The notes below the pieces were generated by a model. That model was not told the origin of the DNA and did not search any database. It saw only the letters and a program-made list of their open reading frames with translations. DNA of 44,852 nucleotides from a phage: sequence record PZ239914.1. The stretch is one strand, 5' to 3'. Below, in pieces: positions 36,484 through 41,729 of this stretch. Positions within the stretch are counted from its first letter, which is position 1; each line of letters opens with the position of its first letter. The translations under genes and the position numbers were made by a program.

Positions 36484-36671
36484 TGACTGTATTCTTTGTT
36501 TTATTTCGTTGCCGTATCACAGGCGACGAGCTTCCAGAAATAATTAGGCATGAGAACTGGCTTTGCTGTTGGGGGAAAGCCTGCGACCTGGCTTTTACAA
36601 TGAACGAAGACGCGAAGCGGGCCAATGTTGAACACGATTATTACATTGCTCAATTTTCAAGGGTGGAATAA
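36483..36671 (+). CDS. hypothetical Cys-containing small protein (62 aa)
   Basis: ATG overlapping the upstream stop (TAATG); GGGAG RBS. Confidence 0.4.
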   Translation: MTVFFVLFRCRITGDELPEIIRHENWLCCWGKACDLAFTMNEDAKRANVEHDYYIAQFSRVE

Positions 36672-38101
36672 TGGCGATTAAACCGAAGCGCAAAACACAA
36701 TCCGGTAGTAATACGGAACATTCATTACTCGGGCCATCCGGTGCTAAAAAATGGATGGGTTGCCCCGCCGCCCTGGTGGTAGAACAGGGCATCCCGAACG
36801 AATCCGGGCAAGCGGCGATTAACGGTACGAGTATGCACACCGTATCTGAAGTCGTGCTCAACCGCATCATTGCCGGTGAGAAGCTGATAACCGCGAAGAC
36901 GTACAAAGGGTGCTACGTCGAGAACGAAGGTAAGGGACCGGTAAAGGCACACCCAAAAGCGCCGAAAGGCGGCGTACTGGTCAACGACGATATGGTGAAA
37001 CAGTGCGACGCATACATCGACCACTGGCGACCGCTCCTCGAAGTGGCGGAGTTTGTTCAGCTTGAGATGCGCGCCGATCTCACCCGCGTCCTACACTCGG
37101 GCTTCGAGATCGACGGCAACCGGATTAAGACGTTCGGTACTGCAGATATGGTCATGGTCATGAAGAAGACCGACGGCACGTACATGCTGATTGTTGGCGA
37201 CCTGAAGACGGGGCGGCACAAGGTCGAGGCGAAAGAAAACAAACAGCTTATGTTGTATGCGCTGGGCCTGCTGCGCAAGCTGAAAACCATGTACGACATT
37301 ACAACCGTGCGCCTGGTTATCTTCCAACCGTATTGCGGCGGGGCGTCGGAGTGGGATATTTCGGTAGAAGCCCTGGAGATATTCGCGAAGTTTGCGTCCA
37401 AGCGTGCTATCGCCTCCCTGGAAGCGTACGCCCGCGGCAAAAAGGGACTCACCCGTGCCGACTTCCGACCGAGCGTTGATGCGTGTCAGTGGTGCAGATT
37501 TGCGGATCAGTGTAGCGCCCGCGCTAAGGCTGCAATCGACACGATGACCCCACCAACGGCAACAGACGAAGACCTGGGCGACGACGTGAGTATTGCGACA
37601 GAGGAAGAATGCGCCAATCACGACCGCAATATGGCCCGCGAAGCCCGCAAAGCGGCACGACGTGCGAAGCGTGGTAAAAAAGAAGCGGCCCCCGGCGCTA
37701 TGACCGCCGCGGAACTGCGCAAGGCTTATGAGGGTCTAGACGCAATGCGCCAGCACATCAAGGCTATCGAGTACGCGGTATTCAAGGCGGTTATGGCGGG
37801 CGATGGCGAATCGCTGGGCCTCAAGATGGTTGCCGGAAAGGAAGGAATCCGCAAGTGGGCGGACGAAAGCGAAGTGATTGAAATCTTCACGAAGGCCCGG
37901 ATCAAGCGCGATGTGATGTACAAAGAAACATTGCTCAGTCCTACGGATGCCGAGAAGGTACTGAAGGACGAGAAGCCGAAAGTATGGGCGAAGCTGTGTG
38001 ATAAAATCACGCGCGCACCGGCTAAACCGGTATTAGCACCAATCGACGACCCACGCCCTGCGTGGTCTGAAGCTACTGACGAGGACTTAAGCAATGAATA
38101 A
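36671..38101 (+). CDS. PD-(D/E)XK nuclease with Cas4-like cysteine cluster (DUF2800-like exonuclease)
   Basis: GTADMVMV...IVGDLKTG nuclease motif; CQWCRFADQCS Cys cluster; charged C-terminal extension; adjacent to an SSB-like gene. Confidence 0.7.
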   Translation: MAIKPKRKTQSGSNTEHSLLGPSGAKKWMGCPAALVVEQGIPNESGQAAINGTSMHTVSEVVLNRIIAGEKLITAKTYKGCYVENEGKGPVKAHPKAPKGGVLVNDDMVKQCDAYIDHWRPLLEVAEFVQLEMRADLTRVLHSGFEIDGNRIKTFGTADMVMVMKKTDGTYMLIVGDLKTGRHKVEAKENKQLMLYALGLLRKLKTMYDITTVRLVIFQPYCGGASEWDISVEALEIFAKFASKRAIASLEAYARGKKGLTRADFRPSVDACQWCRFADQCSARAKAAIDTMTPPTATDEDLGDDVSIATEEECANHDRNMAREARKAARRAKRGKKEAAPGAMTAAELRKAYEGLDAMRQHIKAIEYAVFKAVMAGDGESLGLKMVAGKEGIRKWADESEVIEIFTKARIKRDVMYKETLLSPTDAEKVLKDEKPKVWAKLCDKITRAPAKPVLAPIDDPRPAWSEATDEDLSNE

Positions 38102-38336
38102 AGTATTTGCAATCTTATTGATGTTTGTTATCGGCGCGCTGGGCTTTATCCTGAATTGTGTGCAAGGCGTGTTAATGGTGGCCTGGATGATTCGCCATCC
38201 AACCCGCTGGCTGGATGACGGCTATAGTGAAGCTGCCGTCGGTTGGTTGGAGAAGAACATCGACCGCCCGCCGTTAAGCTGGATCGAGAACGCTACCAAC
38301 TACGTGACCAGAAATCTTTTTAACGAAAATGCTTGA
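38094..38336 (+). CDS. hypothetical membrane protein (80 aa)
   Basis: Hydrophobic N-terminus AILLMFVIGALGFILNCVQGVLMVAWMI. Confidence 0.45.
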   Translation: MNKVFAILLMFVIGALGFILNCVQGVLMVAWMIRHPTRWLDDGYSEAAVGWLEKNIDRPPLSWIENATNYVTRNLFNENA

Positions 38337-38426
38337 CCGCTCAGGCGCAACCAAGTAAATTGGCAACCAAGCCGAACGGGGTGGCTTCCAATAACCCCGA
38401 TACATGTGAAAATGAGGAATTGGAAA

Positions 38427-39212
38427 ATGGCTAAAGTCAACCTGAAAAATGTGCGCGTATGCTTCCTGAAAATCTGGGAACGTGATACCCCTAAACAGGA
38501 TGGGCAAAAACCGGCATACCGTGCCGTGATTCTTCTTGATAAAGAAGATCCGCAGGTGGACAAAGTGGAAGCGGCAGCGCGCGCAGTGCTTACCGATAAG
38601 CTGAAATCCGAGAAGAATGCCGATAAGTGGATGGACCGCCACTACGCCCAGGATTCGAAGGAATGCGCAGTCCGCGACGGCGACGAGCGCGACGAAGTGA
38701 CCGAAGAATTCGAAGGCATGTTGTATATCAACGCCAAATCGTTCAAACAGCCTATCATTCAAACGTCACTCGGCGAGAAGCAGACTGAACAAGGTCTGAC
38801 CGTAGAAGGTGACGAGATCGAAGGCCAGGAGATCTACTCAGGTTGTTATTGCAACGTGTCCCTTGATATTTGGGCGTGGAACAACACCAACGGCAAGGGA
38901 CTCGGTGCTGGCTTGCTGGGTTTACGCTTCCGTGATGACGGTGAAGCCTTCGGCGGTGGCGGGTCTTCTTGCTCCGATGAAGACCTGGACAACGACGACG
39001 AAGACGAAGCACCGCGCAAGGCTAAGAAGTCAAAACGTCGTGATGACGATGATGAAGATGACAAGCCGCGCAAGTCCGAGAAATCCAAGCGCCGCGATGA
39101 CGACGACGATGAGGAAGATGAAAAACCTCGCAAACGCCGCAAGTCCCGCGATGACGAAGATGAGGACGAAGACGACGAAGACGAAGCACCACGTAAACGT
39201 CGCCGCCGTTAA
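38427..39212 (+). CDS. phage ssDNA-binding protein-like (DUF2815-like) with alternating acidic/basic C-terminal repeats
   Basis: Start at the ATG with GAGGA RBS; family call from recalled N-terminal similarity and position next to the nuclease; C-terminal DDDEDEAPRKAKKSKRR-type repeats. Confidence 0.55.
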   Translation: MAKVNLKNVRVCFLKIWERDTPKQDGQKPAYRAVILLDKEDPQVDKVEAAARAVLTDKLKSEKNADKWMDRHYAQDSKECAVRDGDERDEVTEEFEGMLYINAKSFKQPIIQTSLGEKQTEQGLTVEGDEIEGQEIYSGCYCNVSLDIWAWNNTNGKGLGAGLLGLRFRDDGEAFGGGGSSCSDEDLDNDDEDEAPRKAKKSKRRDDDDEDDKPRKSEKSKRRDDDDDEEDEKPRKRRKSRDDEDEDEDDEDEAPRKRRRR

Positions 39213-39230
39213 GGGCAAAGCCCACTATTC

Positions 39231-39255
39231 AAGCCCGCTTAATGCGGGCTTTTTA
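39231..39255 (+). terminator. intrinsic terminator after the SSB-like gene
   Basis: AAGCCCGC-ttaat-GCGGGCTT followed by a T-run. Confidence 0.55.
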
Positions 39256-39270
39256 ATAGGACAACGAAAA

Positions 39271-39441
39271 ATGCGTATTAAAGCCAGCGAAGTAAAAGTC
39301 GGAATGCAAGTATGGTCCAAGCTACTGGGTGAATATTTTACCGTTGCAGAGATTCGCAACAATGGCGAAGAGATTGCCCTGTCTGACGGCATCTTCTCCA
39401 TGATCGGCAGCGCTGACGCCGTAGTGAGGATAAAGCAATGA
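39271..39441 (+). CDS. hypothetical small protein (56 aa)
   Basis: ATG with AGGA upstream; stop overlaps the polymerase start (ATGA). Confidence 0.4.
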   Translation: MRIKASEVKVGMQVWSKLLGEYFTVAEIRNNGEEIALSDGIFSMIGSADAVVRIKQ

Positions 39442-41729
39442 AAGACTTCGAACGCCTGTTTCTCGACACAGAGACATTTAGCGATGTGGACCTGAAGAAA
39501 GTAGGCGCTTACGCCTACGCGGAGCACCCATCGACCGAGATTATGATTTGCACCTACGCCATCGACGAGGGCCGCGTGCAGACATGGGATTGCACCGAGT
39601 CCCCCACAATGCCGCGTGAACTGCGCAAGGCGCTCCGCCGGGTATCCCGCCAGAAAGCAAAAATCGTGATGGCTAACGGCCTCCTGTTTGACCGCCTGGT
39701 TATTCGCGAGAAGTGGGGTATTGACCTGCCGGTAAGCCAGATCGAAGACACCATGATTATGGCCTTTCGCCACGCGCTGCCCGGAAGCCTCGATATGCAG
39801 TGCCTGGTGCTGGGCGTTGACGCGGAGCACGCGAAGGATAAGACTGGCAAGGCGCTGATCAAACGGTTCTGTAAGCCTACCCCTAAGACCTACAAAATCC
39901 GCCGCTACACTCGCGAGACTCACCCAGAAGAGTGGGCCAAATTTCTGCGCTATGCCGCGCTGGATATTATCGCGATGCGTGAAGTCTACTGGCGCATACC
40001 GGACTGGGGTAATACCCCGAAAGAAGATGAAATCCTGCTCATCGACCAGTTGATTAACGACCGCGGCTTCTACGTAGACGTTGACCTGGCGAACGCCGCG
40101 ATCCGGGCGGTGCAGGCGCATAAGGAAGAACTGAAAGAAGAAGCCTGGGAGCGATTTGGCGGTAAGCTGACCGGCAATGACTTCCTGCCAATCCTGCGTG
40201 ATATCGCCCCGGCGTTCACGATCCACAACGCGCAGAAATCCACGCTTAACGACCTTCTTGAAGACCCTGACTTCCCCGACGAAGGCAAAGCGCTTATCGA
40301 AATGCGCCTCGGAGCGTCATCAACGGCATCGTCTAAGTACAATCCGCTCGTTAACGGCCTATCCGCCGATGGACGCCGCCGTGGGTGTATTCAGTATGGT
40401 GGCGCAAAGCGCACGCTGCGCTGGGCCGGTAAAGGCTTCCAGCCGCAAAACCTGGCACGTGGCGAGTACAGCGACGACCACGAAGGGAAGATTAAACGCC
40501 GCGAGGGTGAAAGCGACGTCTCGTTTTGGGTCCGGTCGCACATGCTCACCAACGGCATCAACTCCCTGTTACGCGGGACCGCACACTGGGCGTACGATAT
40601 ATCGAAGCTGACCGCCTCGACCGTTCGCGGGTGCATTATTCCGGCGAAGGGCAAGAAGTTTGTCGTAGCGGACTACGCCAACGTGGAAGGGCGTGGACTT
40701 GCCTGGATCGCTGGCGAGAAAACAGCGTTAATGGTCTTTAAGGCCGGTCGCGATATCTATTGCGAGACTGCCGGTAAGATGTTCGGCCTGGACCCGGACT
40801 ACATTAAAGCCAACCGCAAGGACTTACGCCAGATCGGTAAGGCGTGCGAATTGGGACTGGGCTATGGTGGCGGCGTGGCAGCGTTCTTGCAGTTCGCTAA
40901 AAACCTGGGCCTCGACCTTTACACTATGGCGGACGTGATGAAAGGCACGTTCCCGGATCACATTTGGGCGGCGGCGAAACGTGGTTATGAGTACGCCCGC
41001 ATTAACGAAGCGAAGCGCCCGCCGAAGCTTGGTAAGAAAGACGAGCGCCCAACCTACATACTGCCTAAAAACGTTTGGCTGACGTGCGACGCGATCAAAC
41101 GCATGTGGCGTGAGGCTCACCCGAAGACGGTCGCCTTTTGGGCCGAGCTTGAGGACGCGGTGTTGTGTGCAATCCGCAATCCGGGCAAAGCATACTGGGC
41201 TGGCGCTAACGTTCGCCCGGACGGCAGGAAAGCGCTTAAGATTGTGCGCACGAAGGCGAAGCACGACCCAACCTTCGACGAGGAGCGCGACGACCCGAAC
41301 GCCGCGGGGTGGTGGTTGAAAATTGAGTTGCCGTCGGGGCGCATCATGAGCTACCCCGGCATCGCGTTGTCTGTCACGACCGAGATCGACGAAGACACCG
41401 GCAAGAAGCGCACCAGCACCCGCATTAAATATCAGGGCGAGAATCAGACGACGCGCCAGTGGGGCTTCCAGTATACCTACGGCGGCAAACTGACGGAGAA
41501 CATCGTACAGGCGTTGTGCCGCGATATTCTCGCATGGTCCATGCCTGGCGTTGAGGCCGCGGGGTATGAAATCGTCCTGTCGGTGCACGATGAATTGATC
41601 ACCGAAGTGCCGGATACTGACGACTACACGACCGAGGAGCTATGCGCGCTGATGTGCGACCTGCCTGTTTGGGCGAAAGGGTTCCCACTCGCCGCAGAAG
41701 GCGACATTATGTACAGGTACAGGAAGTAA
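39438..41729 (+). CDS. family A DNA polymerase with N-terminal 3'-5' exonuclease domain
   Basis: Exo I-like LFLDTETFS; motif A-like VADYANVEGRG; motif B-like RQIGKACELGLGYGGG; motif C-like SVHDEL. Confidence 0.9.
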   Translation: MKDFERLFLDTETFSDVDLKKVGAYAYAEHPSTEIMICTYAIDEGRVQTWDCTESPTMPRELRKALRRVSRQKAKIVMANGLLFDRLVIREKWGIDLPVSQIEDTMIMAFRHALPGSLDMQCLVLGVDAEHAKDKTGKALIKRFCKPTPKTYKIRRYTRETHPEEWAKFLRYAALDIIAMREVYWRIPDWGNTPKEDEILLIDQLINDRGFYVDVDLANAAIRAVQAHKEELKEEAWERFGGKLTGNDFLPILRDIAPAFTIHNAQKSTLNDLLEDPDFPDEGKALIEMRLGASSTASSKYNPLVNGLSADGRRRGCIQYGGAKRTLRWAGKGFQPQNLARGEYSDDHEGKIKRREGESDVSFWVRSHMLTNGINSLLRGTAHWAYDISKLTASTVRGCIIPAKGKKFVVADYANVEGRGLAWIAGEKTALMVFKAGRDIYCETAGKMFGLDPDYIKANRKDLRQIGKACELGLGYGGGVAAFLQFAKNLGLDLYTMADVMKGTFPDHIWAAAKRGYEYARINEAKRPPKLGKKDERPTYILPKNVWLTCDAIKRMWREAHPKTVAFWAELEDAVLCAIRNPGKAYWAGANVRPDGRKALKIVRTKAKHDPTFDEERDDPNAAGWWLKIELPSGRIMSYPGIALSVTTEIDEDTGKKRTSTRIKYQGENQTTRQWGFQYTYGGKLTENIVQALCRDILAWSMPGVEAAGYEIVLSVHDELITEVPDTDDYTTEELCALMCDLPVWAKGFPLAAEGDIMYRYRK

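Follow-up and report, generated by a model that had tools for sequence, protein, structure and literature searches.

The stretch of phage DNA analyzed here (sequence record PZ239914.1; 44,852 nucleotides, hereafter the window) carries, at positions 38427–39212, the gene for a protein that binds single-stranded DNA (ssDNA), an SSB, whose C-terminal tail alternates between acidic and basic blocks. The protein is already known; its tail is a variant form, for which the literature searched held no description, of the C-terminal tail familiar from SSBs. The region is up to 97% identical in DNA sequence to Dhillonvirus (HK578-like) siphophages of Escherichia coli, with ZCEC12 and PTXU06 as the top matches, and the SSB gene of SECphi18 is 96% identical to that of the window. 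In all, 161 phage records match the gene, 153 of them over at least 80% of its length, and the deposited names vary from ‘hypothetical protein’ to ‘DUF2815 family protein’ and ‘Gp2.5-like ssDNA binding protein and ssDNA annealing protein’. The best start codon is the ATG at 38427; it is preceded by GAGGA at a distance of 8 nt, the RefSeq homologue of SECphi18 is annotated with the same 786-nt span, and the stop codon (TAA) lies at 39210–39212. Genes for a DUF2800 nuclease and a DNA_pol_A polymerase flank the SSB gene, so that the window contains a duf2800–gp2.5–polA module. Such modules have been described previously, with PF10991 as the Gp2.5 annealing-protein family and, typically, no separate ssb gene (PMC8093625).

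The open reading frame (ORF) at 38427–39212 had been predicted from its sequence to encode an SSB-like protein, and profile searches support that assignment. Pfam PF10991 (Enc34_ssDNA-bd, formerly DUF2815) matches residues 3–193 with 108.9 bits against a cutoff of 26 (E = 3e-31), PHROG 112, annotated as SSB and annealing protein, matches at E = 4.5e-51, and a sequence search recovers solved Enc34 and DUF2815 structures. In an AlphaFold2 model built from 54 homologues, the predicted local confidence (pLDDT) is at least 94 in each 10-residue block of residues 1–170. Foldseek aligns this model with 4klk, 5odl, 5odj, 4jg2, and 1je5, which comprise the Enc34 SSB, two DUF2815 structures, and T7 gp2.5, at a probability of 1.00 and with target TM-scores of 0.52–0.76. 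Trp149, Asn153, and Lys104 align with the Enc34 DNA-contact residues Trp150, Asn154, and Arg112, and a fourth contact residue, Lys46, corresponds to Ala30 in the window's protein. There was no match to the bacterial-type SSB OB domain (PF00436) at E up to 0.01, E. coli SSB structures were retrieved by Foldseek only at E above 1, and NCBIfam holds no model for either the SSB or the nuclease. The ORF encodes an SSB of the known Enc34/T7 gp2.5 type that has already been annotated.

The whole tail comprises the 85 residues from position 177 onward, and residues 177–261 are predicted to be disordered: pLDDT lies at 50–60 from about residue 181, and the model is coil save for one four-residue helix. 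Residues 184–261 form a series of acidic and basic blocks, DEDLDNDDEDE / APRKAKKSKRR / DDDDEDD / KPRKSEKSKRR followed by DDDDDEEDE / KPRKRRKSR / DDEDEDEDDEDE / APRKRRRR, in which each of four acidic runs is succeeded by a basic block opening with xPRK. The original prediction, that the last ~75 residues consist of acidic runs followed by PRK-type basic stretches, is therefore accurate. These final 78 residues contain 38 Asp/Glu and 27 Lys/Arg (83% charged, net charge −11), and the charge-segregation index kappa is 0.50, compared with 0.11 ± 0.05 in 500 shuffled sequences (z 8.5), none of which reached 0.50. The accompanying statement that the tail is encoded by repetitive DNA holds only in a weak sense. 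A degenerate 54-nt (18-residue) period can be followed through units starting at 39039, 39093, and 39147, but adjacent units are only 72% identical, and Tandem Repeats Finder reports nothing beyond 6- and 9-nt codon-level runs. A 34-nt stretch of acidic-run codons (39149–39182) is 97% identical to hypothetical genes of the Erwinia jumbo phages pEa_SNUABM_16 and _28, which is probably a low-complexity coincidence. The tail opens with a motif that is shared across the family: the consensus FDDL comes after DGEAFGG in the family alignment, and CSDEDLDND of the window's protein aligns with TSDAYDEDED of Enc34. The acidic-hydrophobic SSB-Ct tip, on the other hand, is not present, and the window's SSB ends RKRRRR.

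The reading frame of the tail was examined by a codon-position test, in which the window was compared with 11 complete Dhillonvirus loci from IMG/VR. Variable sites at SSB codon positions 1, 2, and 3 number 14, 8, and 89 in the core and 13, 3, and 50 in the tail. Tail variation is thus concentrated at third positions, which shows that purifying selection acts on the SSB frame throughout the tail. The same tail sites fall 3/50/13 in the +1 frame, which is consequently not coding. This bears on an overlapping ORF (38809–39441) that had been regarded as spurious. Over the tail and the intergenic region, it is indeed an artefact of codon composition, open because GAN, AAR, and CGN codons seldom make stops in that frame, but it then runs through the intergenic terminator hairpin into a 56-residue gene that is real (39271–39441). 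The product of this gene, which is located between the SSB and polymerase genes, has no Pfam match. Table S2 of Stokar-Avihail et al. (bioRxiv 10.1101/2022.08.27.505566) gives the gene as an escape locus, with an E21 frameshift and upstream intergenic mutations.

Some deposited records present the tail region differently. The record of phage ZCEC12 carries the spurious +1 ORF as a hypothetical protein, and the tail is in the +1 frame in three database sequences, P0005 (phage vB_EcoS-22664B1), P0008, and phage Ioannina. In phage Ioannina (OQ589852), a 2-nt insertion in the Gly-codon run (38952–38966) creates an annotated 284-residue fusion ORF. Beyond the insertion, the original frame is unbroken up to the same TAA stop, and in our view the insertion either arose during sequencing or dates from very recently. 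The three sequences reflect either sequencing errors or a distal tail that is dispensable. A conserved fusion, or a programmed frameshift into the 56-residue gene, was considered and rejected, as the +1 frame ends before or just inside that gene in all three, and the codon-position test also counters it. The three sequences and the ZCEC12 annotation are likewise what could be cited in favor of an artefact, in which the tail would belong to a gene of its own, to a frameshifted one, or to a repeat misread in sequencing. Yet core and tail lie in one frame in more than 100 distinct homologues, including a 537-member cluster, Ioannina retains the original frame to the shared stop, and the codon-position test supports the SSB frame. 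The homologue, indel, and codon-position data already refute such an artefact, to which we attach a negligible probability.

Comparison with close relatives further indicates that the tail is real, selected, and conserved through the genus. In the protein and metagenome sets, the relatives' proteins span 218 to 261 residues and contain between two and four basic blocks. Gene length in cultured phages is 723–792 nt, and all but one of the full-length matches listed are a multiple of 3. All indels among the 11 complete relatives are in frame, one of them being a 36-residue (two-unit) deletion. The PRKRRRR end is invariant in the window and all 11 of these loci, the residues just before it are nearly so, and ends of the PR[KR]RRR type occur in relatives down to ~45% identity. 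In summed pairwise counts, the non-synonymous share of codon differences from the window is 34% (63/185) in the tail and 10% (33/324) in the core. The tail protein sequence evolves faster than the core and is still constrained.

The positions of the SSB gene, its parts, its putative expression signals, and its neighbors are collected in Table 1. A Retron-Eco8 escape mutation published for SECphi18 lies 66 nt 5′ of the ATG (Stokar-Avihail et al., bioRxiv 10.1101/2022.08.27.505566). A gap-free intergenic alignment places it at window position 38361, the final T of the −10 hexamer. Folding of the RNA from 39210 to 39262 yields −24.6 kcal/mol (z −5.3 versus shuffles), and the hairpin at 39231–39254, which a simple consensus terminator scan does not list, would separate SSB transcription from the polymerase gene. 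Between the nuclease and SSB genes is an 80-residue ORF (38094–38336) with a hydrophobic N-terminus, which shares 8 nt with the 3′ end of the nuclease gene and matches phrog_11211 (E = 2e-51). In RefSeq SECphi18 and phage Ioannina, it bears the implausible label ‘mature oligodendrocyte transmembrane protein’.

Table 1. Positions, strands, and supporting evidence for features at the SSB locus of the window.
Feature	Position	Strand	Basis
DUF2800 PD-(D/E)XK nuclease, upstream of SSB	36671–38101	+	Pfam PF10926, 223.6 bits
Sigma-70-like promoter of SSB gene, TTGACC / 17-nt spacer / TAAATT	38333–38361	+	Consensus scan
Shine-Dalgarno GAGGA, 8 nt 5′ of ATG 38427	38414–38418	+	Read from sequence
SSB gene, 261 residues plus stop	38427–39212	+	ORF, Pfam, PHROG, RefSeq SECphi18 homologue
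OB-fold core, residues 1–176, Enc34 / T7 gp2.5 type	38427–38954	+	Pfam, AlphaFold2, Foldseek
Spurious +1-frame open stretch over tail and intergenic region	38809–39270	+	Codon-position test
Gly/Ser hinge GGGSSC, residues 177–182, opening the disordered tail	38955–38972	+	pLDDT <50 at 177–182
Proximal acidic-Leu motif SDEDLDNDDEDE, residues 183–194, the family-wide ‘DEFDDL’	38973–39008	+	Alignments
Alternating basic/acidic blocks, residues 195–253: three xPRK basic blocks and three acidic runs	39009–39185	+	Composition, relatives' indels
Basic C-terminal end APRKRRRR, residues 254–261, in place of the canonical acidic-hydrophobic tip	39186–39209	+	Relatives' alignment
Terminator-like GC-rich hairpin and U run, right after SSB stop	39231–39254	+	RNA fold
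Genuine 56-residue gene, last 171 nt of ORF 38809–39441	39271–39441	+	phrog_10102, E = 1.7e-42; separate RefSeq SECphi18 annotation
DNA_pol_A, downstream of SSB	39438–41729		Pfam

The wider family places this tail in context. A core-only search of 1.84 billion cluster representatives returned 2,369 relatives at E up to 1e-3, of which the best 150 were examined. Among these, 144 representatives have a complete core; their tails have a median length of 27 residues, and in eight of them (about 5–6%) the tail alternates in charge and reaches 45 residues or more. The other 136 have short tails, 93 of which end in acidic plus hydrophobic residues. A full-length search, which is biased to tail-like words, added ~90 further repeat tails, the most distant at 27% identity and the longest with ~11 units. 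Basic-ended repeat tails belong to nearer relatives (median of 166 bits to the window core), and repeat tails with canonical ends (DDDVA, DDDDVV, DDDLPF, DDEIPF) to distant ones (median of 56 bits). In distant homologues (27–39% identity), the repeats follow a DEFDDL-type motif and the canonical tip stands at the end. Some nearer relatives have ends of an intermediate kind (e.g., ...RNRDED, ...NYEDDEE, and ...SRDDD), from which we infer a progressive decay of the tip in the window's lineage. Three distant loci contain DNA-level tandem arrays with a 54-nt period and 3.5–6.6 copies, which points to separate expansions in different lineages. A conserved 18-residue unit was considered as well and dropped, because the spacing across 98 repeat tails is 12–22 residues, with a median of 16.

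The description of the tail as unusual therefore needs some qualification. The tail is unlike those of characterized phage SSBs, of which that of Enc34 ends WDEDEV, and unlike the acidic-hydrophobic ends of most short-tailed representatives, and it is a minority type (8/144) among the nearest representatives. However, it is also found genus-wide and recurs in distant family members. The alternating-charge tail is a minority variant that recurs across the family and is common within one lineage. Searches with the tail alone were uninformative: no match passed in a set of 5.8 billion proteins, presumably owing to composition filtering, a PHROGs scan produced no more than a faint similarity to the tail part of phrog_15004, another SSB-annotated family (E = 0.012), and a Pfam scan gave nothing meaningful.

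The genomic setting of the gene is also shared. More than 573 IMG/VR loci encode a relative, as found with a 12-sequence alignment, and a scan of GTDB genomes for prophage hosts of repeat-tailed relatives yielded five loci. Distant repeat-tailed genes, including one in a Labrenzia prophage, lie in the same module, with DUF2800, SSB, and then either PolA or a protein of 620–640 residues. Loci with the latter, which has no Pfam match, also encode an SNF2 helicase and a Prim-Pol primase. Tail type showed no link to polymerase type, as repeat tails occur beside PolA and beside the 620–640-residue protein, and short tails are found beside a ~600-residue protein without a Pfam match, too. In many distant relatives, the gene after that of the SSB (L016:6854–8767, L018:7026–8888, L021:4059–5864, L022:4096–5877, and L024:4391–6313) encodes a protein of 593–640 residues with no Pfam match, which sits at the position of PolA in the window, with an SNF2-type helicase after it. 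This protein may be a divergent polymerase.

The neighboring nuclease has a C-terminus (...SEATDEDLSNE, 38066–38098) that echoes the start of the SSB tail, CSDEDLDND. Across ten diverse loci, the end of the nuclease is similar to the proximal motif of the SSB from the same phage. For example, a nuclease ending VDEFDDLD is paired with an SSB carrying PDEFDDLDDD, and one ending VTDDDLSD with an SSB carrying VSDDDLDDDD. Similarity summed over the ten loci is 218 for same-phage pairs, compared with 169 ± 13 for permuted pairs (p 2e-4, relatedness being ignored). A further 74 IMG/VR loci encode short-tailed relatives, and in 73 of them the ORF upstream shows homology to DUF2800 proteins that had been verified. 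These 74 loci provide 60 unique nuclease–SSB pairs, with an acidic-Phe motif in 43 of the nuclease ends. In 33 of the 60, the last two residues of the nuclease are Leu and a hydrophobic one, as in the SSB tip (e.g., TADEFADVSESVEDLV in the nuclease and SEDEFDDIAEGATADDLV in the SSB, each at the C-terminus). All five nucleases ending in -LA are paired with SSBs ending in -LA, and the similarity of the last five residues across the 60 pairs has a p of 0.006 when relatedness is ignored. In the window, the hydrophobic tip is found neither in the SSB nor in the nuclease. These patterns suggest that the nuclease C-terminus mimics, and co-varies with, the SSB tail of the same phage, and that both tails may dock on, or compete for, one site. 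In T7, gp2.5 and the gp4 helicase use their acidic tails to bind identical sites on the polymerase, and mimicry within the window's module would resemble that arrangement by analogy. The nuclease–SSB comparison also places the repeats between the proximal motif and the tip, i.e., in the position of a linker.

Known SSBs offer several points of comparison. The Enc34 ORF6 SSB (Enterobacter/Hafnia phage; PDB 5ODJ, 5ODK, 5ODL) belongs to the same PF10991 family and has the same fold as the window's SSB, at ~22% identity in the structural alignment. The ssDNA-stacking Trp and the kink-stabilizing Asn are conserved between the two, both have an unstructured, net-acidic tail opening with an acidic-aromatic/aliphatic motif (TSDAYDED and CSDEDLDND, respectively), and the window shares the duf2800–gp2.5–polA module usual for the family of Enc34. 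The Enc34 tail differs in having ~29 residues, 16 of them Asp/Glu, a WDEDEV end, and no basic blocks in the residues compared, whereas the 85-residue tail of the window's protein has 27 Lys/Arg in four blocks and ends RRRR. Deletion of the Enc34 tail leaves ssDNA binding unchanged and leads to double-stranded DNA being bound with similar affinity (PMC5686142). In the Enc34 crystal, the tail rests on an adjacent molecule's beta-sheet, and these contacts suggested a higher-order assembly on ssDNA (PMC5686142).

T7 gp2.5 is only 11–12% identical to the window's SSB, but the two have in common the T7-type OB fold (Foldseek 1je5, E = 2e-6) and a net-acidic tail, which is regulatory in gp2.5. The tail of gp2.5 is 26 residues long, purely acidic, and ends in a Phe that is essential; unlike it, the window's SSB has no aromatic or hydrophobic C-terminal residue. 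The layout of E. coli SSB, namely an OB core, a long disordered linker, and an acidic-hydrophobic tip (DDDIPF), is that of the distant repeat-tailed homologues, some of which end in DDEIPF or DDDLPF of the E. coli SSB-Ct type. However, the E. coli core is unrelated, and the window's protein lacks the tip. The E. coli linker, which has been implicated in cooperativity and phase separation, is also rich in Gly, Gln, and Pro and nearly uncharged, in contrast to the highly charged tail described here. In T4 gp32, SSB–SSB cooperativity depends on a short basic Lys/Arg-Ser/Thr motif, and partner contacts as well as autoinhibition are the work of an acidic domain. The combination of basic and acidic elements in the window's tail can be compared with gp32 as a functional analogy only, as gp32 belongs to another fold family (no sequence or fold match) and bears these elements unrepeated and at opposite ends of the protein.

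The SSB of the Dhillonviruses SECphi4 and SECphi18 is the same protein as that of the window, with a SECphi18 tail identical in layout. Expressed alone, the SECphi4 SSB activates the defense system Retron-Eco8, as does T7 gp2.5 (10.1101/2022.08.27.505566). The window's SSB may accordingly prefer ssDNA in vitro, for which this shared activity is indirect support only. The escape mutations examined from the same study are T56P, F106V, and N152H in the core and a −10 change in the promoter, and the SECphi18 SSB gene carried escape mutations as well (10.1101/2022.08.27.505566). N152H adjoins Asn153, one of the residues aligned with an Enc34 DNA contact. The study shows SSB residues 1–186 and sets the rest aside as flexible (10.1101/2022.08.27.505566). 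The tail was also considered as a determinant of defense sensing, and this was rejected because the escape mutations examined lie in the core or promoter, and because deletion of the T7 tail leaves Retron-Eco8 activation unaffected.

With moderate confidence, we lean toward an explanation in which the repeats are a repeat-expanded, charge-compensated linker within the tail of a replication/recombination SSB. In order, the tail is made up of the Gly/Ser hinge, the acidic-Leu/Phe motif, ~3.5 units of ~18 residues in which xPR(K/R)-basic residues come after an Asp/Glu run, and the invariant Arg-rich end. The proximal motif may dock a partner or a neighboring SSB. Each new acidic run would bring a basic run with it, such that length triples and the net negative charge remains in the range of short tails. 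Plain short tails (n = 160) have a median length of 26 residues and a median net charge of −7 (interquartile range −10 to −6), and repeat tails (n = 95) a median length of 77 and a median net charge of −10 (interquartile range −14 to −7), with a slope of −0.08 charge per residue of tail. Added acidic runs are matched by basic runs, and the net charge is therefore near that of ordinary tails. We postulate that this net negative charge serves DNA-mimic autoinhibition and ssDNA selectivity, as in gp2.5 and Enc34. Units are gained and lost in frame, through slippage or recombination, and the window's lineage has lost the canonical acidic-hydrophobic tip of the SSB. As this tip is missing both from the SSB and from the nuclease that shares its motif, partner contact would then be made through the proximal motif and/or the charged blocks.

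Several points weigh against a charge-compensated linker. A pure spacer leaves the invariant Arg end and the ExPR(K/R) junctions, which are conserved from close to distant relatives, unexplained, and these features suggest a specific ligand. Natural variants with only two basic blocks (224 and 218 residues) exist, and a frameshift removes the tail in three records, so that the number of repeats may not matter and even the entire distal tail could perhaps be spared. Moreover, the charge-balance comparison ignores relatedness and mixes two samples, one of them biased to tail-like words, and a literature search found neither a description of, nor an experiment on, an alternating-charge SSB tail. 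It is conceivable, although we hold this only tentatively, that the tail is a distinct, functionally specialized type, a multivalent electrostatic module in which the ExPR(K/R) units and the Arg end bind a specific ligand, such as DNA, SSB tails, or a replisome protein. These elements would replace the tip in Dhillonvirus, with the proximal motif as a docking peptide and the SSB and nuclease competing for one site.

Other readings give the charged blocks a different role, or almost none. In one, which takes up the original suggestion of phase separation or recruitment of replication proteins, the basic blocks and Arg end may bind the acidic blocks of neighboring SSBs, or the DNA backbone, and this multivalency would let the SSB coat ssDNA cooperatively or form condensates, sensitive to salt, in which replication proteins are concentrated. 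Blocky polyampholytes favor self-association, and the strong blockiness of the tail (kappa 0.50, z 8.5) is kept despite rapid change (34% versus 10% non-synonymous), while arrays have expanded in several distant lineages (54-nt period, 3.5 to 6.6 copies, in three distant loci). The tail contacts in the Enc34 crystal, with their suggested higher-order assembly on ssDNA, would fit as well (PMC5686142). Nevertheless, a net charge of −11 makes the tail self-repelling overall, and variants with two to four blocks coexist in otherwise similar phages. Cooperativity reportedly fell when a highly charged linker was substituted for that of E. coli SSB, and we regard multivalent electrostatics as possible but doubtful. 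That the repeats are a largely neutral, low-complexity expansion, arising by slippage of GA-rich codons, with selection on composition and frame only and with non-specific basic blocks, seems unlikely to us. Length is polymorphic in the genus (218–261 residues; 723–792 nt in cultured phages), the tail protein sequence evolves faster than the core, and the period varies from 12 to 22 residues over the family with no fixed unit length, as such an expansion would have it. The Arg end is invariant, however, and the ExPRK junctions are conserved, third-position bias is equally strong in tail and core, acidic and basic residues alternate instead of mixing while net charge stays in a narrow range, and the DNA units are old and diverged (72% identity), not recent products of slippage. 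A role in recombination, in which the basic blocks screen DNA charge and promote annealing together with the DUF2800 exonuclease as a two-component recombinase, would agree with the annealing annotation of PHROG 112, with the mimicry between nuclease and SSB tails, and with the classing of PF10991 as a Gp2.5 annealing family in modules that typically have no separate ssb (PMC8093625). Yet most members of the module do without basic blocks: the SSB tails listed for the 74 IMG/VR loci are short and acidic, and short tails are the rule (136/144) among the nearest representatives. The literature examined also contains no demonstration of annealing for the subfamily of this SSB, and we judge this role to be very improbable.

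A whole phage genus, together with its metagenomic relatives, has an SSB with arginines at its end and with basic blocks set between the acidic ones. If these blocks are functional, they provide a natural series, spanning two to more than 10 units, with and without the canonical tip, for relating charge patterning to ssDNA selectivity, cooperativity, and partner hand-off. Dhillonviruses (SECphi18, BASEL phages) are already used in anti-phage defense work, and the SSB is a known defense trigger, which makes the system tractable. The annotations of some records, which list the +1-frame ORF or fusion ORFs produced by frameshifts, need correcting. Finally, the mimicry between nuclease and SSB, if true, would offer a handle on how the very common DUF2800–SSB–polymerase module holds together.

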